Below, piece by piece: positions 25,881-44,805 of a stretch of DNA of 46,236 nucleotides (positions are counted from its first letter, which is position 1; every line of letters starts with the position of its first letter). Under the pieces are notes generated by a model. That model ran no database searches and was not told the origin of the DNA. It saw only the letters and a program-made list of their open reading frames with translations. Both the position numbers and the translations under genes were made by a program. Origin of the DNA: a virus (lineage: Duplodnaviria > Caudoviricetes); IMG/VR virus record IMGVR_UViG_3300035180_002546, positions 1 through 46,236 of that record. The stretch is one strand, 5' to 3'.

Positions 25881-28800
25881 ATGCCATTCAATATATTCAC
25901 CGGACAAGATGATACAGTAACGAAAGAACCTTCATCCGGGAGTCATTTTGATATCTTTTCAGGGGAAAGCACAGCGGAGCAGCCTACTAAGCAACGCCCA
26001 AGTCTTGATAGAACTGGATTCTTTTCTTCTCCAAATCTACTAAAAGCGGATAGTGCTGTTTCAAATGTTGTAAGTCGATTAGTTGGAAAGTTCAAACAAG
26101 GGTTTAAGGTACCAGATACATCCTTAGCTCCTATTGTAAATGAGGCAAAAGACTTTGCTTCTACAGTCAAAGATACTGCTATAAATATAGGTAATAACGT
26201 GATTGAAGGGGTAAAACACCCTTTGGCTCGACTTGAATCAGTAGCTCCTGATATTACAAAAGTATTAAATCTCAATCAGCAATTTACACCTGAACAACAA
26301 GCCTATGAAAAAGATAAGTTTATAAACGCCGTAATTGGCTTTACTGGAAATGCAGATTTCAGCGCAGGCGCCATATCTGGTAGTAAAATTCCTAAACCAA
26401 TTCTTGATTTCTTTGCAAAAGAATCAAATCCAGAAGTCATTAGTACGGCTATACAAAAGACGTTTAAGCTTGATCCAATCCTTGCCGATGAAGTTAGTGT
26501 TGGCCTTTCAAAAGCAAAGACCGCTTCAGAAGTAAAACAAGCCCTGCTTGAGTTTAGAACATCTACTCCTACTGCATCTGTAGTGCCTGAAATTGCCGGA
26601 GTCCCATCAAAACAAGAGGCAAAATCAGTCGTTTCCCGTGTAGTAGAGGAAGTAAAAGCTACGGTACCAGCAGAACCTATTGCGAAAACACCTGTAGTAC
26701 CTAAAGAAGATGCACTCACTACTGAAGCTCGTAAGTATAAGAGTGCGGAGGAGTTCGTTGCTTCTCAAAGAAAAATGTATAGAGGTACTGCGACTCCTCA
26801 ATCAGGTGATCTTGATGTTGCAAATACATACGGTCTTGCTTATGGAAAGGGTGCATATCTTGCTTCTGAAGAGTCTTTTGCAAAGCAATATGGAAATAAT
26901 ATATCAGAACTCTATCCAGTTCTTAAAAAACCTTTTGCAATGGATAAAGAAGTTTCCCCACAATTTCTTGTTCAATTTAAGAAAGATTTCCCTTCATATA
27001 ATGAAAAATACGGTACGACAGGTGAAGACATTCATTCATTCTTGCAACAAGATGATGCAAATGAATATCTGCAAAAGCATGGATATGATGGACTTATTGA
27101 TGCTGCAAGTGAAGGGTCAAAGCAAACAATCGTCTTTGATCCAAAGAATATAAAAACAAAATCCCAACTCATAGATATCTACAACAAAGCAGTAGGAGAG
27201 ACTAAACCAAAGCTTCAAGTCTCAGAAGACCAAAATCTTATAACACAACACAATATATCTGAGAGAAAACTTCTATACGCACATGAAAAGGGTGGTCTTC
27301 CTGTTCCTAGTCTCGCTATTGCAAATAAAAATACACCACTAACAAACTTTGGTGAAATTACCCTTATTGGAGATAAGCAAATGATTGATCCTTCAGAGAA
27401 GGAGAACAAGGTATTTAATGCCGATGTATATTCAAAACGCTTTCCTCGACTTGAGACTACTGTAAAGTCAATGGATCCAGTACAAAAAGTTATTGATGAA
27501 ACGAAGGACTATTTCACAAACCTTGACCTTCCAGAATGGATAAACTATGACAAGGCAACTTCAATACAGTCAAATATTCAGGATGAAGGTATTGATGGAA
27601 TGAAAAGAGACTTTGCTGTTCAAAGAGCTTTTGCAGCAAAGAACGAAATATCACCTACTTCTACCTCAACAGAGATTGAAGACTATGTAAACAATAAAGA
27701 AAATCGGGCACGATATCAGTCTTTTGTAGAAGATCTTTATAAACAGATAGTACCATCTGAAAGAATATTTAAAGGTTTTACTTATTCAGGTCGCCGACGT
27801 TACTCTCCTGCTACTATAGAAAACATCATTAAAGAGATGAAAGGGGCAGTAAAAGATACAGAAGGTTTCAACTATGGGGTCGCTTCTATTCGCGCATCTC
27901 AAGCAAAACAGTTTAAAACACTTGATTCAATTCTTAAAAACAGAGGAAAAATTGTCTCAGAGAATGACATGGAGCTGATTAAAGATGGCTTCGATAGGGA
28001 ATTTAATGAACTACTAGATACATATGATATCTCAGATCTATCTACATTTACTGAAAATCTTAAAGATTTTTTGAAAGGAAAAATCCGTCTATCGGAATTC
28101 AAGCAATACACCGGTATCTCAGATGAGGGGGCTAGTGCGTTTGTACAATTTGCAAAACAACTCAAAGAAGCACCTACAGAGTATTTTGAAGTAAAAAAAC
28201 AGAGGCTTGTTGGAATTGGTGAATTTAAAACCGCAGTAGTACCAAATGATATATCTATAAATGCTAGAAAAGTACTTGAAGATCAAGGCATTGAAATTGT
28301 TGAGTATGATCCTCAAATAAAAGGCGATAGAGAAATAAAGATTAAAGATGCTGCCGATAAAAATAATATCGCATTTAGAAAGGGTGTAAATGAATTCTCA
28401 GATGGTATTACTCCACAAGAAGCGGAAGCAAAAATCCGTGAGCTTTTTGACGATCATGAAGTTCAACTCATTACAGGAGAAGATATTGGTTCTCTTATCA
28501 AAATGGATGACTCAGAGAGCATACTACGAGGTTTTCACCAGCCAAAGCGCGTTATTGCAGATCTTATTGGTCTTGTAGAGAGAGATGGAAAGGTATCCAA
28601 CTCAACCCTATACCATGAGTCATTTCACGCATACATGGAGAATTTTGTAGCACCCGCTGAAAAAGCCAATGTAATTAAGTACATAATGGAAAATAAGGTT
28701 ACAAATGCTGCAATGAGAGTGAAGTACTCAGATAAGAACTACCCTACTCTTGAAGAGAAGGCAGAGGAGTGGCTTGCAGATGATTTTGCTAATTTTGTAA

Positions 28801-31800
28801 AAACTGGCAATGCAGATGCGCCCCTCAGAAATTTCTTCCAGCGTATTCTTGATCGTATTCGCAAATGGATCAGAGGTATAGGAAAGCTGGATGATCTGTA
28901 TGAACGCATACTGAAAAAAGATCGTTCAACAGTAAATCCAAAGACTGCTTCAAAGAAACCCTCCATGTCAGTTGATGGTGAAAAAACACCGCAAGAAATT
29001 CTTGCTGAGGCAGAGGCGAGTGCAAAAAAACCAGGTGGACAACAGGATCGACTACGGGGACTCGCTGAAATAGCACGCAATAGTGACACCTATGAGGACT
29101 TTATCTATAACATTTCAAATAACTCTCTTCTTAAAGAGTGGCGTGCTGATGTGCAGGAATCAGGATTCAACCATTTTGCTAACTTCTACAAAACACAGAA
29201 ATCTCTTAAAGAAGGTGTTGCTCCTGTAATATCGAAGCCTATTGCAAAATCAGTTGCTCAAGTTATAGAAGAGTCTCCTTCACTTATTACCACCCCTGAA
29301 ATCAAAGTAGAATCTGCTCGATCAGTTCCAGAGAGTAAGATACAGCTATCCCCAGAACTTCAAAAGATGAGCGATGAGATCAGTATTAGAAAAGATAGTC
29401 TTGAAGGGTTCTCTCAAGGACTTCCTATTGGAGATCTTCAAAAGTATGTGATGACTTCAGGTGATATGGAAGGTCGTTTTCCTGAGGTAACAGGAACTGA
29501 TACCGCTTCATACCTTGCTGATATTAAAAAACGTCTCGCTTCTCCGAAACTCAAAAACAAAGATACAATCAAAAACCTTCAAAATATCCTTGATTTTGCA
29601 AAGAATGGCGATGCAATAGTTACTGAATATGGTTTTAACAGTGTTGAGGATGCCACTGATGCATTTGAAAAATACACTCAAGAGAAAAATGCTATACGTG
29701 ATCTTGAAAAAGAGTATCGTATGAAAAAGAGAGAGTTTATCGCTGAAGAACGCGACCGATACGCAATTGAAGGTATTGTAACTAAGCAGGAAAAGCTTGA
29801 TGCACTTAGAAAAGTTGAAGCAATTCTCCGAGAAGAGGGTAGAAATAGAGCCCAAAAGATCAAAGCAATTGCTGATCACTTTAAGATCCCGGATAGTCAA
29901 ATGAAGAAGATAGTTGGTACAAAAGATTTCAGACTTCTTAGTGATAAAGACTTTGAAAACCTGCTCAAAAAGGTACAGGGTATGGCCTATGATGAAGCAC
30001 AGCTCACAGAGGCGCGACTTATGGTCCAACAGACTATTGATGCAAAGGATCTAAAGAAAGTTGAAAACCTCCGACAAGCAATGAAACTTCCAAAGATTGA
30101 GAATATGAGCCTTAAGCAGCTTGATGAGTTTGATACTCTTCTCAATTCGTTTGAAATGGGAGATGAATTTCTTGGTATTCGACAACTTGAAACCCTCAAA
30201 AATACTGATATAGCAGATATCCATACAAAACGTGAAGCACTTGAGTCTCTCGCAAAGAGTACTGGATCTACGGTTGCAGATCTCCAAGACATTAAGATAA
30301 ATTGGCTCAATAAGTTTGAGTCTGGTACTTCTCTTGCCCGCCAAAACCCATTCTTTGAACGTATGGTAATGGATACGAATGCTGCAAAAATAAGTGCCGG
30401 TATTCGCTTCCATGAGTTCAAAAATGAACTTAACCAACTTCTTATCAATGCACGAAAAACACGATCCCGTGGTCTTGTTGATAGACTTGTACCAACTGAT
30501 GAACTGATATTCAGATGGCTTGAGGCAAGTGATAAAGAGGCAGTAGCAAAAACTATGACTCCACAAGAGATACAAGCTGCTCAATTTATACAGAAAAAAT
30601 ATGCAGAAATACGTGACTATCTTGTAGAACAGGGCGTACTCAAAAAGTATCGGGAGAACTATATCACCCATATTAGAAGAGGTTTTCTTGAAGCACTGAA
30701 GGATGGTGGTCCATTTAGAGGGTTCAAAAATGCTATAAAAGAGCTATTTGATAACTATAAAATGGAGGAAGCAAACTTCAATATCCTCAATGATCAAACA
30801 GGTGAAATCCTCCCGCTTGAGAAGTTTTTCAAGTACTCAATGGCACGATCAGATAAACTGATTCCATCAAAAAATGTTGCAAAGGCCGTAATGAATTACG
30901 TCCGAACATTTGAAACTAAAGTAGCACTTGACTCAATTGTTCCAAAGATTGATGTGTATGCTCACGCCCTTACCCCAGGACGTATGACTCCCCGTGGTCT
31001 TGAGTATGATTCCTCTATCAAGCGGTTTGTAAAACAATGGTTGAATACTCAAAAAGGACGTCCGGTCGATATAGGATTTATCAAAGCAGGGGATAAGCTT
31101 GATTGGGCTATCCGAAGTGGTGTTGCGCTCACTCGCGTGCTCGATCTTGCCCTTAATATACCTGTTGGACTTGCTTCAAATGTTGGTGAACAGGTTATGA
31201 CATTTACTGAGCTTGGTGCTAAACAGTATGCAAAAGGACTAGCTCGATCTCTCTCAACCCAAGGGAAGCTCATCATTAAACACTATGAAACCATGGTTGG
31301 TGAGACGCTCTGGACACGACTCTCTGACACCTCTAAGGATATAGGGGATAAGTTCACTGAAACATTCTTCTCACTGTTTAGTATTGCAGCACGAAAAGCA
31401 AACGTAGTGGAATTTCTAGGAATGCTCTCGCCTGAAGAGTTTAAGACAGGGGTTATTTCATCTCAACGTCTTGCCGAAATGAAAAATGCTATGGGCAAAT
31501 GGCGTGCTGTAGAAGATGCTCCGGGATCTCTATTGGGTAAAACGGCTATTGGCTCTGTGTTCAAACAGTACAAATCCTGGGCGTACCCTATTGCAAGTAC
31601 CACACGAAATAACATTAAGGTCCTTATAAAAATGGCAAAGGAAGGTAAAAACCCTACCAATAGTAAGGAATTTGCTGAACTCTTACGCGTAACTCTTGCC
31701 ACCGCCGCGATCCTCCTTGTTTCATACGGAGCATATAAAAAGCTTGATTCGACCAAGAGCCGCACATTTATGGAAAATCTCGCCTACAAATCAATGGGAG

Positions 31801-32801
31801 ATGGACTCTCACTCTTTGCAGGTCTTTCACCTGCTACATGGGGCACTACTCCTCGCCTGATTGCCTTTCTTAATGATCTCTCCACGTCAGTGGTAACGGT
31901 AGGAGCATCTCTTATAACAGGCAATCGAACATCGGAAGGAAACATTCCAGGTGCCACAGTTCTCAAACAAACGATCACTCCAAAGATAGTAAAGACTCTT
32001 AGTCCAAGTGCATCTAAGGATGATCCAGCAACAGCTGAAGTACGGAAGGTATATAACGAAGCTCAAGCTCTTATAGGTGAAGGTAGACAAGAAGAAGCAG
32101 ACGCTCTTGTATCAAAGGCATTTCCAGAAACTCCTGAGGGTGATGCTGGGTATGAGATATACAAAAAGCTCAAAACTGCTGATAAGAAAAAAGAGACTGA
32201 ACAGGCAGTTCTTGGTATGAAAGATACGGTAGACCAGGTGTATAAACTCAAACAAGATGGAAAGGATGATGAAGTTCAGGCCATTGTTGATGCAATGACT
32301 GATGATGAATACCATGCGTATGAACTTGCAAAAAAACGCTTCCCACCTGACGGATCAAAGCCTCAATACACTGCGGGGGAAGAGGTTCCAGAAGATAGTG
32401 TTATAAATTCAGTGCTCACCTATGCAAAAGCAATAGGTACTGATCCAGTTACTGCATTTAACCGGATATTTACCGGCCAGCATATTCGACGTGTTGATAA
32501 TGGGGCAATTATTGTAAACAGAATGTCTCTCTCTGATTCAGAAGCAGTCAAGAAGTCCCAGGGTGCTACAAAAGATATGAGACTTGACCACACGGTCCCA
32601 CTTGAACTTGGTGGATCGAACAATAAGGGTAACCTAAAACTCGTACCTGAAGCTGTATGGGCATCGTATAGTCCAGTAGAAAACTATCTTGGTAAAGCTC
32701 TTCGAGAAGGACGTATATCTAAAAAACAAGCACAAAGCCTCATTCAAGATTTCAAAGAAGGGCTCATCACCTTTGAAGGGATTCAGTCCCAGGTAAAATA
32801 G
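25881..32801 (+). CDS. Large polyvalent internal virion/ejection protein
   Basis: 2306 aa. ART-like segment (YRGT..YGKGAYL..GYDGLI..IVFDPKNIK), an HNIS..GGLPVPSLAI domain, zincin LYHESFH and a C-terminal DHTVPLELGGSN..NL. Confidence 0.8.
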   Translation: MPFNIFTGQDDTVTKEPSSGSHFDIFSGESTAEQPTKQRPSLDRTGFFSSPNLLKADSAVSNVVSRLVGKFKQGFKVPDTSLAPIVNEAKDFASTVKDTAINIGNNVIEGVKHPLARLESVAPDITKVLNLNQQFTPEQQAYEKDKFINAVIGFTGNADFSAGAISGSKIPKPILDFFAKESNPEVISTAIQKTFKLDPILADEVSVGLSKAKTASEVKQALLEFRTSTPTASVVPEIAGVPSKQEAKSVVSRVVEEVKATVPAEPIAKTPVVPKEDALTTEARKYKSAEEFVASQRKMYRGTATPQSGDLDVANTYGLAYGKGAYLASEESFAKQYGNNISELYPVLKKPFAMDKEVSPQFLVQFKKDFPSYNEKYGTTGEDIHSFLQQDDANEYLQKHGYDGLIDAASEGSKQTIVFDPKNIKTKSQLIDIYNKAVGETKPKLQVSEDQNLITQHNISERKLLYAHEKGGLPVPSLAIANKNTPLTNFGEITLIGDKQMIDPSEKENKVFNADVYSKRFPRLETTVKSMDPVQKVIDETKDYFTNLDLPEWINYDKATSIQSNIQDEGIDGMKRDFAVQRAFAAKNEISPTSTSTEIEDYVNNKENRARYQSFVEDLYKQIVPSERIFKGFTYSGRRRYSPATIENIIKEMKGAVKDTEGFNYGVASIRASQAKQFKTLDSILKNRGKIVSENDMELIKDGFDREFNELLDTYDISDLSTFTENLKDFLKGKIRLSEFKQYTGISDEGASAFVQFAKQLKEAPTEYFEVKKQRLVGIGEFKTAVVPNDISINARKVLEDQGIEIVEYDPQIKGDREIKIKDAADKNNIAFRKGVNEFSDGITPQEAEAKIRELFDDHEVQLITGEDIGSLIKMDDSESILRGFHQPKRVIADLIGLVERDGKVSNSTLYHESFHAYMENFVAPAEKANVIKYIMENKVTNAAMRVKYSDKNYPTLEEKAEEWLADDFANFVKTGNADAPLRNFFQRILDRIRKWIRGIGKLDDLYERILKKDRSTVNPKTASKKPSMSVDGEKTPQEILAEAEASAKKPGGQQDRLRGLAEIARNSDTYEDFIYNISNNSLLKEWRADVQESGFNHFANFYKTQKSLKEGVAPVISKPIAKSVAQVIEESPSLITTPEIKVESARSVPESKIQLSPELQKMSDEISIRKDSLEGFSQGLPIGDLQKYVMTSGDMEGRFPEVTGTDTASYLADIKKRLASPKLKNKDTIKNLQNILDFAKNGDAIVTEYGFNSVEDATDAFEKYTQEKNAIRDLEKEYRMKKREFIAEERDRYAIEGIVTKQEKLDALRKVEAILREEGRNRAQKIKAIADHFKIPDSQMKKIVGTKDFRLLSDKDFENLLKKVQGMAYDEAQLTEARLMVQQTIDAKDLKKVENLRQAMKLPKIENMSLKQLDEFDTLLNSFEMGDEFLGIRQLETLKNTDIADIHTKREALESLAKSTGSTVADLQDIKINWLNKFESGTSLARQNPFFERMVMDTNAAKISAGIRFHEFKNELNQLLINARKTRSRGLVDRLVPTDELIFRWLEASDKEAVAKTMTPQEIQAAQFIQKKYAEIRDYLVEQGVLKKYRENYITHIRRGFLEALKDGGPFRGFKNAIKELFDNYKMEEANFNILNDQTGEILPLEKFFKYSMARSDKLIPSKNVAKAVMNYVRTFETKVALDSIVPKIDVYAHALTPGRMTPRGLEYDSSIKRFVKQWLNTQKGRPVDIGFIKAGDKLDWAIRSGVALTRVLDLALNIPVGLASNVGEQVMTFTELGAKQYAKGLARSLSTQGKLIIKHYETMVGETLWTRLSDTSKDIGDKFTETFFSLFSIAARKANVVEFLGMLSPEEFKTGVISSQRLAEMKNAMGKWRAVEDAPGSLLGKTAIGSVFKQYKSWAYPIASTTRNNIKVLIKMAKEGKNPTNSKEFAELLRVTLATAAILLVSYGAYKKLDSTKSRTFMENLAYKSMGDGLSLFAGLSPATWGTTPRLIAFLNDLSTSVVTVGASLITGNRTSEGNIPGATVLKQTITPKIVKTLSPSASKDDPATAEVRKVYNEAQALIGEGRQEEADALVSKAFPETPEGDAGYEIYKKLKTADKKKETEQAVLGMKDTVDQVYKLKQDGKDDEVQAIVDAMTDDEYHAYELAKKRFPPDGSKPQYTAGEEVPEDSVINSVLTYAKAIGTDPVTAFNRIFTGQHIRRVDNGAIIVNRMSLSDSEAVKKSQGATKDMRLDHTVPLELGGSNNKGNLKLVPEAVWASYSPVENYLGKALREGRISKKQAQSLIQDFKEGLITFEGIQSQVK

Positions 32802-39611: not shown

Positions 39612-40670
39612 ATGGCAGCAAAAAAGAAAGCAGGAAAACAAATAGGTCTTAGTGTAGAAGAGACTCTCAAAGAGATCAATAGTAAGTTCGGTGCAGGAAC
39701 CGTAGGAACGCTTGAAGGAGCGGCTATGGACATCGAGTCAATCACGACTGGATCGTTTGGTCTCGACCTCGCACTCGGAGTCGGTGGACTTCCCAAAGGT
39801 CGCCTCGTAGAAATATCAGGTATGGAAGCATCGGGTAAGACAACTCTTGCCCTCCATGTGGTAGCAGAAGCACAAAAAGCAGGGGGATTGTGTGCCTTTA
39901 TAGACGCAGAACACGCCCTAGATCCTCTATACGCCCAAAAGATAGGGGTAAATACTGCAAACCTCATCATCAATCAACCAGACAACGGTGAGCAAGCCTT
40001 GGAGATTGTAGAGACAATGGTACGAAGTGAAAAGTTCTCTGTAATCGTCGTTGACTCCGTAGCTTCCCTTACCCCAAAGGCAGAACTTGAAGGCGAAATG
40101 GGAGATGCAAACATTGCACGTTTGGCACGCCTCCTTGGCCACGGCCTTCGTGTATTGGTCCCATTGGTATCAAAGAGTGATACAGTCCTCATCTTCATTA
40201 ACCAGATCCGAACCAATCCAGGAGCATTTCCTGGTACAAACCCAGAATACACACCAGGAGGAAAGGCATTAAAGTTCTACTCATCGGTCCGTATCGACAT
40301 GCGTAGAATCTCACAGATCAAAAAAGGAGAAGAGATAGTCGGATCACGAACACGAGCAAAAGTAACTAAGAACAAAGTATCTGCACCATACCGTCAGACA
40401 GAATTTGACATCATGTATGGACAGGGTATCTCATTTGAAGGTGAACTTCTTGTAACGGGTGAAAAATATGGCGTTATTTCAAAGAGTGGACACTCATACA
40501 AGTACGGAGAAACTGTACTTGGAAGAGGCTATGACTCAAGTCGTATCTACCTACGCCAAAACAAAGACATTGCTACCCTCATCAAGCAACAGATCGTAAG
40601 CGCAATCGAAGCAGAAAAGGTCGAACTATCTGAACAAGACATTGAAAGTAGTAACGAAGCAGGAGAATAA
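39612..40670 (+). CDS. recA: Recombinase A
   Basis: [53 protein letters not shown] and [12 protein letters not shown]. Confidence 0.97.
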
Positions 40671-41065: not shown

Positions 41066-41101
41066 ATGGCAAGATTTACTATTGAACAATATGAAATATA
41101 T
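41066..41101 (+). pseudogene. 5' stub (MARFTIEQYEIY) of the gene interrupted by the IS, probably the DUF1064 gene
   Basis: ATG 2 nt after the previous stop; the frame runs into the IS inverted repeat. Confidence 0.5.
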
Positions 41102-41130
41102 GGGATTGTACTAGATGACGGTAGCTTATG

Positions 41131-41157
41131 TAAAACCACCCAATCCGGGTGGTTTTA
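41131..41157. terminator. Bidirectional terminator just inside the IS end
   Basis: TAAAACCACCC-AATCC-GGGTGGTTTTA. Confidence 0.75.
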
Positions 41158-41159
41158 AT

Positions 41160-41522
41160 TTACTTCGATACTTCCGACTTCTTTATGACCCTCTTCAGGT
41201 GTCCGGCACTGAGCGCAAGACCGATCAGAAATAGTATTAACAATCCCTGTACTTGTAGCATCCCAATACCAATTATAAAAAGTACTGATATGGTGATTAA
41301 ATTGTCCGTATGCTTTATAGGATCTTTCTTGAGTTTAGTACCTTCACTAATAATCAAGATTCCCAAGAAAATGATTACTAAAGCAGCAAGAAATCCAACG
41401 GATTCAATTTGGTATAGCAACATAATTATCACAGCATTTACTATACCGGATAGTATTGCCAATCCTCCAACAACAAAAGATTCGATTTTCAAAATACGAA
41501 GAGTTTTATCTATTTTTGTCAT
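41160..41522 (-). CDS. Cargo membrane protein with about 4 TM helices (120 aa)
   Basis: MTKIDKTLRILKIESFVVGG...; four hydrophobic segments. The ATG at 41522 is preferred over 41552. Confidence 0.7.
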   Translation of the reverse strand: MTKIDKTLRILKIESFVVGGLAILSGIVNAVIIMLLYQIESVGFLAALVIIFLGILIISEGTKLKKDPIKHTDNLITISVLFIIGIGMLQVQGLLILFLIGLALSAGHLKRVIKKSEVSK

Positions 41523-41636
41523 ACCTGCAAGGTTTTTACTTAATAAATGCAAAACACCGCCACGGAGGTGGAAAACCTTGCAGGGTAAACCACTCCGTAG
41601 CGGAGCTTCAACTGCAAGGTTTAGATATTGTTTTGT
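41523..41636 (-). ncRNA. C4/CI-like antisense leader RNA
   Basis: The stem-loop loop CCUGCAAGGUUUU is complementary to an upstream copy and to a copy abutting the ATG. A TGnTATACT promoter lies at 41651-41643. Confidence 0.6.
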
Positions 41637-41684
41637 ACCTGTAGTATATCAGAGTTATGCACTTGTGTAGTTACGTAACACTGC

Positions 41685-41715
41685 TTGACAGGGAGCGTTC
41701 CCTGCGTAGTATACT
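41685..41715 (+). promoter_or_regulatory. Divergent promoter with a dyad in the spacer
   Basis: TTGACA-19 nt-TATACT; CAGGGA-GCGT-TCCCTG overlaps the spacer. Confidence 0.5.
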
Positions 41716-41807
41716 GAAAGTATTATCAATGGACCCAAAGACTGAAAAAGCCGCTATTGATCAGATAACGGCTCCTCAGTGAGTAATGACGAAAAAACAA
41801 AATCTGT

Positions 41808-41846
41808 GACGACGGCCTCAGGAAATTTCCTGAGGTTTGTTGTTTC
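41808..41846 (+). terminator. Hairpin/terminator between convergent cargo transcripts
   Basis: GACGACGGCCTCAGGAA-AT-TTCCTGAGGTTTGTTGTTT. Confidence 0.55.
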
Positions 41847-41863
41847 TCCTCAAAGAACAGGTA

Positions 41864-41974
41864 CTACCGGTACACCGTCTCACGAACAGTAGTACGAGGA
41901 TTACGACGAGCGTATTCTTCAGTAACTATATGCCCAGTGATGGCGTCACGATAGATGTAGTAAAGTTTGGTCAT
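41864..41974 (-). CDS. 36-aa small protein of the RDAxTGx(F/I)..AxxxPxTTVxET type
   Basis: MTKLYYIYRDAITGHIVTEEYARRNPRTTVRETVYR. AT-rich leader before ATG 41974; the upstream 42130 start runs through structured RNA. Confidence 0.65.
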   Translation of the reverse strand: MTKLYYIYRDAITGHIVTEEYARRNPRTTVRETVYR

Positions 41975-41994
41975 AAATAATTTATGTTCAAAAT

Positions 41995-42276
41995 TACTTC
42001 TACTAACTGGTTTCCAGGATGCACTACCGACGGCTATCCGGCGAATTGAGGGTAGTTCACCAACTCGGGTCACCATAAACGAAAAAATCGCGTTGACTGA
42101 AGACAACACCAAGGAGAATTGAAGATTCATTGTAGTAAAAATTCTATCCCTTTGATTGCTACACCAAGGTTTCCCTCGATGTTGCCTTCAACAAACGCGA
42201 TTAGTTTTGGATTAAATTTTACTTCATTGATTCTTCTTCAATAATTACACGATTACTCGCGCTTCTTAGTGTAGCA
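41995..42276 (-). ncRNA. Candidate large structured RNA with three interlaced helices and a downstream pseudoknot
   Basis: Pairings 42265-76/42157-68, 42209-42/42118-49 and 42171-202/42086-118; most deviations are G-U pairs on the minus strand. Promoter TTGCAA-18 nt-TATAAT is at 42311-42282. Confidence 0.65.
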
Positions 42277-42325
42277 GTAACATTATAAACCACTTTTAAT
42301 ATCTATTGCAAGCATTTTTCCACAA

Positions 42326-42622
42326 CTACACAGTAACTACTTCCCGATACTCCTCTTCAGTAAGGTTGAGATCGCATACTCGGCAATGGTAGATATATTC
42401 GGTATGTTCGACATTACCACTGTCGATATTCACACCCCCCTTATACTTATCGAACGCCTCATAGAAGCACGCTGGGCATTGCACTGTAACCATAGTCCAT
42501 TTTTGTGCCAATACACCTTGTGGTGCATTTTCAATCATACAAACTGCTATATCAGTCTCAGAGAGATTCTGAGCGGCAAATCTACTTGCTGCACTAGAAA
42601 CTTTTGTTCGAGGAAATTCCAT
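42326..42622 (-). CDS. Cargo zinc-ribbon protein
   Basis: CPAC...CRVC; 98 aa. Confidence 0.6.
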   Translation of the reverse strand: MEFPRTKVSSAASRFAAQNLSETDIAVCMIENAPQGVLAQKWTMVTVQCPACFYEAFDKYKGGVNIDSGNVEHTEYIYHCRVCDLNLTEEEYREVVTV

Positions 42623-42639
42623 ATAGGAATTATACCACG

Positions 42640-43578
42640 CTATTTATTGTCATTGTCTTCAGTTTCAGTAAATGGCAACTGCATCGTATCTCCAAATTTA
42701 GGCGATGCTCTTTGTAGCATTCTATAAAAACCGTCCCATGTTGTAGATCCTCTCATGAGAAAGATAAGATTTTCAAGATGTCTTTTTAGTTCCGGTGTTC
42801 CAAAATCTTCTGTCATATATTGATGATGAGTGCGCGCTCTATGCCCAGATATTTGACGCGGATTGAGTTCTTTGAGTTTCGCAACCACTCCAGGTGCAAG
42901 ACGTGAGTACACGATATCATTTGTCCAATGTCCAATATAACTGGGCTTGTTCTTTGTTGCCGGAGGATATGTCATATTCTTGAGACGGAATAGCTGTTGA
43001 TAAAATTCATCAGGAAATCTCTTTGTCCATTTTGCATATTCACCAGTGATGTATTTATCAAGGATCTTTTGAAGCGCATCTCGATCTCGTATCTCTTGAT
43101 ATCCGGTTGCCTCATCAACAAGTGCAACAATACCTACTACAGCAAGTCCCCTGACGAGGATTTCACATTGTTTTGCAATATGCTTTTGTCTTGGATTCAA
43201 AGCACCATTCTCTCTTGCCTCAAGAACAGCATTACAGATATCTGGTAACAGTGTTGCCTCATATCCGTTTGCTGTTTTTCCAGTAGGAAGTTTGAATACG
43301 AGTGGACTTTTCGTGCGCGTTAGCACTTCTGTTGAAATATAAGGCTTTAATGACTGTGTTTGTGCAAATTGCTCTAGTTTATTGATTGGTTGCGCGTTAG
43401 CACTTTGGAGTTGTTTTCGGCCACCTCCAGTGGACATTCCTAGTGCGGTAAGCATATCACTTTGTATTAGTACTCGCGTACCATCTTCCAAGACATATGC
43501 CTGTAATTCAAGCTTTCCGATTTTAAGAGGACGATCTGCCGCTCCGAATATAGCTTTGTTTATTTTTTCTGTTTCCAT
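42640..43578 (-). CDS. P63C-domain protein (Mx8 p63 C-terminal family)
   Basis: AYVLEDGTRVL, VGIVALVDEATGYQEIR, WTKRFPDEFY, TNDIVYSRLAPGV and HHQYMT. Confidence 0.88.
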   Translation of the reverse strand: METEKINKAIFGAADRPLKIGKLELQAYVLEDGTRVLIQSDMLTALGMSTGGGRKQLQSANAQPINKLEQFAQTQSLKPYISTEVLTRTKSPLVFKLPTGKTANGYEATLLPDICNAVLEARENGALNPRQKHIAKQCEILVRGLAVVGIVALVDEATGYQEIRDRDALQKILDKYITGEYAKWTKRFPDEFYQQLFRLKNMTYPPATKNKPSYIGHWTNDIVYSRLAPGVVAKLKELNPRQISGHRARTHHQYMTEDFGTPELKRHLENLIFLMRGSTTWDGFYRMLQRASPKFGDTMQLPFTETEDNDNK

Positions 43579-43579
43579 G

Positions 43580-44446
43580 TTATCTAATTGTTATTGCTTT
43601 TAATATGAGCGCGTCGAACACATCCTGCTGATTTCGCCGGTTATACCGGAAGCAGAACTCGTCGATGTAGCGGTTGAGGTGTTTATCGGTCACATGGTGG
43701 TACTGACCGATGATGCCGCGCTTCAAAAGCGCCCAGAAGCCCTCAATCGTGTTTGTATGTGCATCTCCGATCACATACTCGCCGCGGCCATGTCGAACCT
43801 TTGAGTGTTCGTATTTCTTCTTGTGAAGTCCGGTATAGCCGCCCCATTCGTCAGTCATGATCCGTGACCCTTCTTTTACTTGTTGTTTGATGATCCGCTG
43901 GAGAGACTTGGCAGACACATCTTTCACTTTGCCTGCTCGGACCGAACCACCACGCATCAGTAATCCAAATACCGCAGTCTTGTCCTTAGTGCTACGTCCC
44001 TGGTTGTCTCTCAGTCGTTTATTGAAATGTTTGTTTTTAGACTTTCCCCCGATATATGTTTCATCTGCCTCTATAATGCCTTCGAGCATATCACCGTCAT
44101 CGATCATTGCCTTACGAATGCGCATAAGCATGAGCCATGCAGTGTTTTTGTTTACCTCGATATCGCGTGCCAATTGACGGGCACTGATACCTTTGCGAGC
44201 ATTGAGTACCAGTGCGATCGCGAGAAACCATCGCTGGAGGTCAATCTTTGTCTTATGAAAAATAGTGCTCACGGTTACCGAAAAAGAGGTATTGCAAGCA
44301 TTGCAGTGATGACGGTGTTCGTTCGGTGTTACCCGGCGTGATTTGCAGTATGGACACCAAGGCTTGCCATGCCAACGCACTTCTTCAAGATGCGCAAGGC
44401 ACGCATCAGGCGTAGGAAACTGTTTGTAGATTGATATGATATTCAT
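43580..44446 (-). CDS. IS1595-family (ISXO2-like) DDE transposase
   Basis: Zinc ribbon CPYC..CNAC, an HTH, IEADETYIGGK, IMTDEWGGY, HTNTIEGFWALLKR and YIDEFCFRYN. Confidence 0.95.
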   Translation of the reverse strand: MNIISIYKQFPTPDACLAHLEEVRWHGKPWCPYCKSRRVTPNEHRHHCNACNTSFSVTVSTIFHKTKIDLQRWFLAIALVLNARKGISARQLARDIEVNKNTAWLMLMRIRKAMIDDGDMLEGIIEADETYIGGKSKNKHFNKRLRDNQGRSTKDKTAVFGLLMRGGSVRAGKVKDVSAKSLQRIIKQQVKEGSRIMTDEWGGYTGLHKKKYEHSKVRHGRGEYVIGDAHTNTIEGFWALLKRGIIGQYHHVTDKHLNRYIDEFCFRYNRRNQQDVFDALILKAITIR

Positions 44447-44476
44447 AGTAAAAGATAGTCGCTACCTTTATATGGG

Positions 44477-44505
44477 TATCCTATCAGGTACTATAAACCC
44501 TGTCA
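44477..44505 (-). promoter_or_regulatory. Transposase promoter
   Basis: Minus-strand TTGACA-17 nt-TAGGAT just inside the IR; coordinates approximate to 1-2 nt. Confidence 0.6.
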
Positions 44506-44538
44506 AACTTAATCACTACCTATATCTAGTACAATCCC

Positions 44539-44805
44539 AATTTTTATACTAAGCTCAAAACTCTCAAACATGCACATGATCCAAAAGATCGTATTACGCT
44601 GATTATTCCTCAGTTTCCTATTGACGTGTATATTAAGGGAAAGCATGTCTTTACTTATATTGTAGATTTCAAGGTCTCTACAGCATCTGGAGAGTGGAAA
44701 TATTATGACGTTAAGGGGATGAAATCTGGATCTGCATATGCAATGTTTCGACTAAAAAAGAAATGTGTAGAGGCGCAGGAGGGTATAGAAATTATAGAAG
44801 TATGA
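44539..44805 (+). pseudogene. 3' part of a DUF1064-family (PD-(D/E)XK-like) gene truncated by the IS
   Basis: NFYTKLKTLK..PQFPIDV..FTYIVDFKV..YYDVKGMKS..MFRLKKKCVEAQEGIEIIEV*. Confidence 0.8.

Follow-up and report, generated by a model that had tools for sequence, protein, structure and literature searches.

The stretch of DNA analyzed here (46,236 nt, hereafter the window) is an entire circular phage genome (a virus record with a 127-nt terminal overlap; 46,139-nt contigs in three runs). A Shine-Dalgarno-like motif was found at 0 of 25 gene starts of the phage, its promoters are sigma-70-like, and an IS1595-family transposase encoded in the genome has one close named relative (72%), which occurs in a Parcubacteria genome; the phage host is thus likely a member of the Patescibacteria. 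The phage also carries its own RecA and a 2,306-aa protein (window 39612-40670 and 25881-32801, respectively).

The transposase gene is part of an IS1595 element at 41101-44539. Along the minus strand, the element contains the transposase, a P63C protein, a 98-aa orphan, a unit made of a promoter, an RNA with crossing helices, and a small gene, and a 120-aa hydrophobic protein, as follows:

44516-44539, no strand, IS1595 terminal inverted repeat on the transposase-upstream side, its position matching the inverted repeats of related elements
43580-44446, minus strand, intact IS1595-family transposase of 288 aa (PF12762, NF033547)
42640-43578, minus strand, P63C-domain cargo protein of 312 aa
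42326-42622, minus strand, CxxC protein of 98 aa without a detected relative
41160-41522, minus strand, hydrophobic cargo protein of 120 aa
41101-41124, no strand, IS1595 distal inverted repeat

The inverted repeats are perfect over 16 bp and reach 88% over 24 bp, and the transposase is an ISXO2-like DDE enzyme with a zinc ribbon, a feature of IS1595 membership. No 8-bp target-site duplication was found at the window's element, which has intact ends but flanks that differ, while three related elements (L009, L011, and L012) have apparent 8-bp target-site duplications. A preliminary description of this DNA had called the RNA IS-borne. This holds for the present copy only; a comparable triple-helix structure is absent from the 16 viral IS1595 relatives examined. 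The leader of the 120-aa hydrophobic gene (41530-41620, minus strand) forms a long hairpin with an inner hairpin and has a 10-mer repeat adjoining the start codon, and it could be a further regulatory RNA.

Upstream of the small gene, the minus strand carries three segments and their three partners in the order X-Y-Z-X'-Y'-Z', within 195 bases, and each helix crosses both others. The features of this region are the following:

42282-42311, minus strand, promoter-like TTGCAA-18-TATAAT, with a +1 predicted from spacing near 42275-42276, at the start of X
42265-42276, minus strand, X (12-mer copy c1)
42247-42262, minus strand, GUAA tetraloop hairpin H between X and Y
42209-42242, minus strand, Y
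42171-42202, minus strand, Z, the 3' 12 nt of which (42186-42175) are 12-mer copy c2
42158-42185, minus strand, alternative local hairpin c2-GAAA-X' (about -16 kcal/mol), a nested intermediate
42157-42168, minus strand, X' (12-mer copy c'1)
42118-42149, minus strand, Y'
42086-42118, minus strand, Z', including 12-mer copy c'2 (42113-42102) and a local terminator-like hairpin (42109-42090)
42082-42087, minus strand, U6 tract directly after Z', a candidate termination site that would yield an RNA of ~195 nt

The X helix (42276-42265 with 42168-42157) has 12 bp with one G·U (-19.4 kcal/mol). The Y helix (42236-42209 with 42149-42121) has ~29 bp, comprising 24 pairs, four A·A, and one bulge (-20.9 kcal/mol), and can adopt an alternative register of 8 bp (42242-35 with 42125-18). 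The Z helix (42202-42171 with 42118-42086) is the strongest, with ~33 bp and 31 pairs; its energy is -42.1 kcal/mol on the minus strand versus -30.1 kcal/mol on the plus strand. The arms of hairpin H could alternatively base-pair to Z and Z' at their outer ends. The promoter and the U-tract exactly bracket the three helices. The promoter-like sequence is present where it had been reported, though such sites occur in the region at chance level (12 found versus 10.2 expected).

The three helices and the GUAA hairpin were recovered where the preliminary description had placed them. The triple-helix score is 126 versus a mean of 33 and a maximum of 90 in 400 dinucleotide shuffles, and the locus ranks first among 2,446 tiles drawn from the window and 23 loci. 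Fragments around each helix have fold z scores of -4.3, -5.6, and -6.8 (0 of 200 shuffles as good in each case), while the 3' part of the leader alone (42085-41975) is not unusually stable (z of +0.3). Deviations from Watson-Crick pairing on the minus strand number 10 for G·U and 0 for A·C; there are also four A·A, which all fall within Y. The bias of 10 G·U versus 0 A·C (P of about 0.001, in a test that is somewhat favorable because G·U was permitted when the helices were defined on the minus strand) agrees with the earlier proposal that the deviations point to an RNA on this strand. Contigs from four public runs, of which three may be the source of this DNA, carry the stretch unchanged and show no inversion joints, which argues against an assembly artifact. 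The structure occurs as a single copy in the phage genome. The earlier statement that the RNA falls outside known families was also borne out, as Rfam 15 gave 0 matches at gathering score in the window (best E value of 0.24 near the locus). A selected RNA structure lying outside Rfam is therefore supported.

Several features had been overlooked in the first reading, namely a four-copy exchange, the U-tract after Z', a helix around the small open reading frame (ORF), and a convergent promoter. The exchange arises because one 12-mer occurs in four interchangeable copies (X, the 3' end of Z, X', and the start of Z') that can pair in a crossed manner (X:X' and Z:Z') or in a nested manner (X:Z', and Z:X' as the GAAA hairpin). 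Crossed pairing gives 24 of 24 pairs and nested pairing 20 of 24, because two columns have changed on both sides, in step with their crossed partners; these two columns (U-A versus G-C and U-A versus A-U) are compensated only in the crossed pairing, and four further columns vary within wobble only. In none of 20,000 permutations of the hairpin columns were both crossed helices preserved. Exact direct repeats alone are not in excess (9-mers, 169 of 2,000). The 12-mer exchange is more than chance, and the compensation between copies is what this sequence offers as its sole covariation-like evidence. The detector used for such exchanges is too permissive in GC-rich DNA and missed the sense strand of the L164 locus described below.

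The small gene and its downstream control elements are arranged as follows:

42309-42332, minus strand, 24-nt imperfect repeat running into the -35 box, with its inverted partner at 41664-41687
42021-42042, minus strand, 5' arm of a long-range helix, inside which lie the start codon and the greater part of the ORF
41955-42005, minus strand, predicted local stem burying the AUG
41866-41895, minus strand, 3' arm of the same long-range helix, located in the final codons of the ORF
41864-41974, minus strand, 36-aa small protein with the motif R-x-A-x-T-G-x-x-V-T...P-x-T-T-V-x-E, of a widespread unnamed family
41814-41837, plus strand, terminator-like hairpin, better formed on this strand
41685-41712, plus strand, convergent promoter-like TTGACA-16-TAGTAT with a palindromic spacer

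The small-protein family has 98 representatives, and relatives start near the same Met (41974) as the 36-aa protein. The 88-aa ORF that adds 52 residues upstream gains no support as a protein, given that the relatives have their start near Met 41974 and that the in-frame upstream sequence of L164 is unrelated to that of the window. The frame of the small gene is open far upstream in both cases, for ~70 codons in the window (42190-41975, minus strand) and ~59 codons in L164 (L164:94-270), with dissimilar proteins. The 36-aa protein is charged and is modeled as a soluble beta-hairpin/helix/beta fold (pLDDT of 91.7). Sequence searches of Pfam, NCBIfam, PHROG, and PDB gave no match for it, and a fold search with the model returned no clear match (best Z of 3.0). 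The small-protein module is often tandem-duplicated or domain-fused (P0122-P0218), including in an HNH-like protein (P0165). At loci L044 and L049, in two distant bacteria, a tiny ORF with a V-x-A-Y-V-R-R-R...H-F-R motif precedes the small gene, which suggests a recurring two-peptide cassette.

The AUG of the small gene has a mean probability of being unpaired of 0.30, versus a mean of 0.56 for 25 phage starts, of which one is lower. The long-range helix between 42042-42021 and the last codons (-28.5 kcal/mol) was equaled by 3 of 3,000 synonymous recodings when the window of comparison was chosen post hoc and by 2 of 150 when it was slid along the sequence. From their positions, the convergent site and the plus-strand terminator would yield an RNA of ~125 nt (~41719-41845) antisense to the 3' end of the mRNA. 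This candidate RNA has a fold z of -3.5, and its complementarity to the leader does not exceed that of shuffled sequences, 49 of 60 of which pair as well. The small gene thus seems to be kept in check at more than one level, in the manner of type I toxin mRNAs. The 24-nt inverted repeats, each entering the -35 box of an inward promoter, bracket the unit of RNA and small gene and resemble a cassette or a shared operator; no third copy was found with a pattern drawn from the two.

No sequence homologues of the RNA were detected by blastn in phages and plasmids or by RNA-motif patterns in viral and metagenome contigs. The scan for the small gene in metagenomes extended over 29 of 64 parts and comprised 119 of ~260 stretches, 39 of them with a flank of 300 nt or less. 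Profile matches defined 172 loci, with 134 distinct upstream regions of at least 230 nt, including that of the window. A similar layout was seen in one of the 133 others, L164, which was picked out by eye. Profile searches of 351, 401, and 251 genomes of three phyla gave 14 analyzable upstream regions, none of which has the layout. The proposed tie between the RNA and the family of RDAxTG small genes is therefore weak.

The small gene of L164 shows 53% identity, and the matching features lie in L164:15-524, with a flank of only 300 nt. Its segments follow the same order (X 15-31, Y 32-54, Z 80-104, X' 105-120, Y' 121-144, and Z' 145-160 plus 231-240), and its exchange hairpin has a GUAA loop. 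The rod score is 54 versus a maximum of 40 in 300 shuffles, a crossing 10-bp helix was obtained in 55 of 20,000 trials, and the exchange test gave 36 of 20,000, although an earlier, more tightly trimmed version was weak (779 of 20,000). Nested and crossed forms are equal in energy (-26.1 and -25.7). The ORF of L164 is also enclosed by a 29-bp helix, which ranks first among 127 loci; in this test the window reaches +1.5 because its arm lies within the ORF. A convergent TTGACC-16-TAGTAT with a palindromic spacer is present too, any such site being found in 9 of 129 loci. On the other side, L164 was not flagged by the automatic triple detector (excess of 4.8), its AUG is locally ordinary (0.55), and it bears no significant sequence likeness to the window. 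Unlike in the window, no U-tract follows the last helix, Z' is interrupted by 70 inserted nt, and Y instead of Z is the strongest helix. Rfam gave 0 matches in L164 and 14 other loci. L164 is one layout analogue and possibly a distant homologue.

Other candidates were set aside. A 15-nt motif common to the window and L164 is explained by chance (788 of 2,000), and its six viral matches are not homologues. BLAST matches in L019 and L021 appear inside coding sequence. The long helix of L042 looks like the mirror motif of divergent Bacteroidota promoters, and other strongly folding upstream regions are simple hairpins.

The preliminary description had left three options for the helices, a co-transcriptional folding cascade or timer, a knotted RNA, and a multimerizing RNA, and the first is now the best supported. 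Prefix folding predicts X:X' at 140 nt, Y at 160 nt, the full nested rod at 180 nt, and Z:Z' at 200 nt, and the best nested states are successively more stable (-47.4, -53.9, and -56.7 kcal/mol). We tentatively favor, at slightly less than an even chance, a cascade of co-transcriptional strand exchange that takes place in the leader of the 36-aa gene, controls this gene, and has no single static fold. In the predicted order, X:X' would form first. Y:Y' would next close as a rod, while the GAAA hairpin captures X' and X shifts to the start of Z'. The emerging end of Z' would then dock on the start of Z, beside the U-tract, and branch migration would swap the 12-mers into Z:Z' and X:X'. On topological grounds, Z' of a nascent RNA, the 3' end of which is held by the polymerase, should be unable to thread the loop of Y:Y', and winding Z by three turns would twist open the weaker, A·A-rich Y:Y'. 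Since the 3' end could not thread and Y:Y' would be forced open, the cascade would act as a one-way ratchet ending in Z:Z' and X:X'. As its regulatory output, we infer that whether transcription terminates at 42082 or reads through into the small gene depends on when Z' docks. The buried AUG, the long-range helix, and the convergent RNA might further restrain this gene, a scheme that recalls type I toxin mRNAs. In the window, the accessibility of the AUG is constant over transcript lengths (0.30 to 0.31) and thus independent of the state of the leader, so a direct link from the cascade to translation is not indicated. It also counts against the cascade that the preference for crossed over nested pairing fits a stable crossed end state equally well.

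Known regulators provide partial precedents for such a cascade, as far as the accessible parts of the cited papers go. The Helicobacter pylori aapA3/IsoA3 system has metastable folds, a ladder of rising stability, and a 5'-3' long-distance interaction (PMC6733600), and the present locus shares with aapA3 the small ORF, the stability ladder during transcription, the helix around the start, and a candidate antisense RNA. Unlike in aapA3, the helices here are 12 to 33 bp long, cross each other, and exchange via four copies; there is no Shine-Dalgarno sequence to hide, the protein is soluble, and the antisense unit is convergent. A candidate convergent small-RNA promoter, a shared terminator region, the adjacent small ORF, and the location in a mobile element recall txpA/RatA, bsrG/SR4, and par Fst/RNAII (PMC8167048), whereas a transmembrane toxin is absent here and the leader is much longer and more intricate. 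Direct repeats of the par/Fst type with dispersed pairing between sRNA and mRNA were also not found, and 49 of 60 shuffles pair as well. At 36 aa, the protein is within the size range of type I toxins (<60 aa), and its start region is predicted to be locked by mRNA folding; the hydrophobic transmembrane toxin that is typical of these systems, though not universal, appears from the model to be absent in this charged protein. The locus is thus outside type I on toxin type, and its proposed control resembles that of known metastable-fold regulators. The 5' untranslated region of the maturation gene of levivirus MS2 likewise forms a transient structure that delays a final long-distance fold, but this timer is a cloverleaf of short helices in an RNA phage and has no crossing triple (PMC4615214). 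ROOL, GOLLD, and other orphan ornate RNAs of Rfam resemble this RNA as phage-borne structured RNAs with an undefined role; they differ in being much larger, in having many short pseudoknots instead of long crossing duplexes, and in their presence in Rfam.

It is unlikely that a stand-alone RNA of ~195 nt, terminating at the U-tract, forms all three helices together and so becomes a true knot. Such an RNA would tie itself into a pretzel-type knot with about 11 or more crossings, an outcome to which we likewise give a low probability; the pretzel-type designation is our own reasoning, and the term was not found in the accessible part of PMC13505510. The geometry, in which three helices would lie side by side and meet hairpin H at a four-way junction, is improbable to the same degree, as is the route, in which the very short ends would thread after a nested intermediate. 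Threading would become feasible if transcription stopped at 42082, leaving tails of a few nt, the predicted +1 lying on X and the U-tract right after Z'. An equally doubtful knotting pathway would use the 12-mers as a mobile Holliday-like junction that locks X:X' and Z:Z' around Y:Y'. The fully paired X:X' and Z:Z', with their two compensated columns, are consistent with a knot, as are estimated helix lengths of 34, 81, and 92 Å, which are roughly compatible with distal linkers of 7 and 6 nt. Helices X, Y, and Z span 2.2, 5.3, and 6.0 half-turns. With 12, 29, and 33 bp, they satisfy the threshold of at least 10 bp for interleaved helices in PMC4829277 and far exceed both its two-helix criterion and its best natural candidates (13/25, 18/10, and 22/9 bp). 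Interleaved helices of at least one turn are shared with those candidates (ColIb-P9 repZ, CCR5, and hTER), with the X-Y-X'-Y' designs of Seeman (PMC4829277), and with the RydC trefoil (cited in PMC11218946), from which the present RNA, as far as these sources were accessible, differs in having three crossing helices, two of them near three turns, and a built-in exchange, knotting here being hypothetical. Several threading events through narrow slots would be required, however; Y:Y' is weak, and the flush 3' end is missing in L164. Moreover, PMC11218946, in its accessible part, names one 65-nt RNA as the sole example known of a knotted RNA and regards deep entanglements as running against the folding hierarchy.

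A relic of nested duplications, or a DNA-level feature without an RNA role, is similarly improbable. Motifs in four copies and the empty homologue search would suit a relic, and sequence alone does not separate G·T-tolerant single-stranded DNA from RNA, according to the accessible part of PMC5737381. Against this stand the single copy in the genome, copies that differ by wobble-compatible and compensated changes, the excess of G·U over A·C, and the ordinary frequency of exact direct repeats. The helices also exactly fill the space from promoter to U-tract, and inverted forms are absent in the four runs.

We give a still lower probability to intermolecular closure, in which the X-H-Y, Z-X', and Y'-Z' strands would lie in different junctions of a dimer, trimer, or network. 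The order of the segments is that of one-strand junction tiles, and in L164, X-Y and Z-X'-Y'-Z' abut without linkers, which would strain a monomer. Natural RNA multimers exist, including, in the accessible descriptions, ROOL and GOLLD, but closed oligomers with helices of two to three turns would also require threading, and prefix folding predicts that local intramolecular states form first. Known natural RNA multimers rely, moreover, on short tertiary contacts. A trans-acting role is just as improbable as a multimer: an excised 5' half would act on X', Y', and Z' of new transcripts to cause termination, as P4 CI and P1 C4 RNAs do in trans, and whereas the same unit carries all three partners downstream, ahead of the small ORF, and Z' contains a terminator-like site, no C4-family match was found in Rfam and the 5' half lacks a stable cloverleaf with exposed loops.

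A three-helix crossing leader with four-copy exchange, or the protein motif, was not found in the literature searched, most of it open access, and six supplement files of PMC10690425, as far as accessible, gave no match. The feature is real and odd, as judged from one sequence and one analogue. Natural RNA knots are an open question, with published candidates of two interleaved helices of at most 13/25 bp; a 195-nt sequence with three interleaved helices (12, 29, and 33 bp), short ends, and a plausible route makes this question testable. If the RNA were knotted, it would be a natural RNA that contains a deep knot and encodes the pathway leading to it. If the favored cascade is correct, the leader would represent a natural RNA circuit operating by four-way strand exchange, which we did not find described in the literature searched, and it would point to tight control of a widespread, unstudied family of small proteins.
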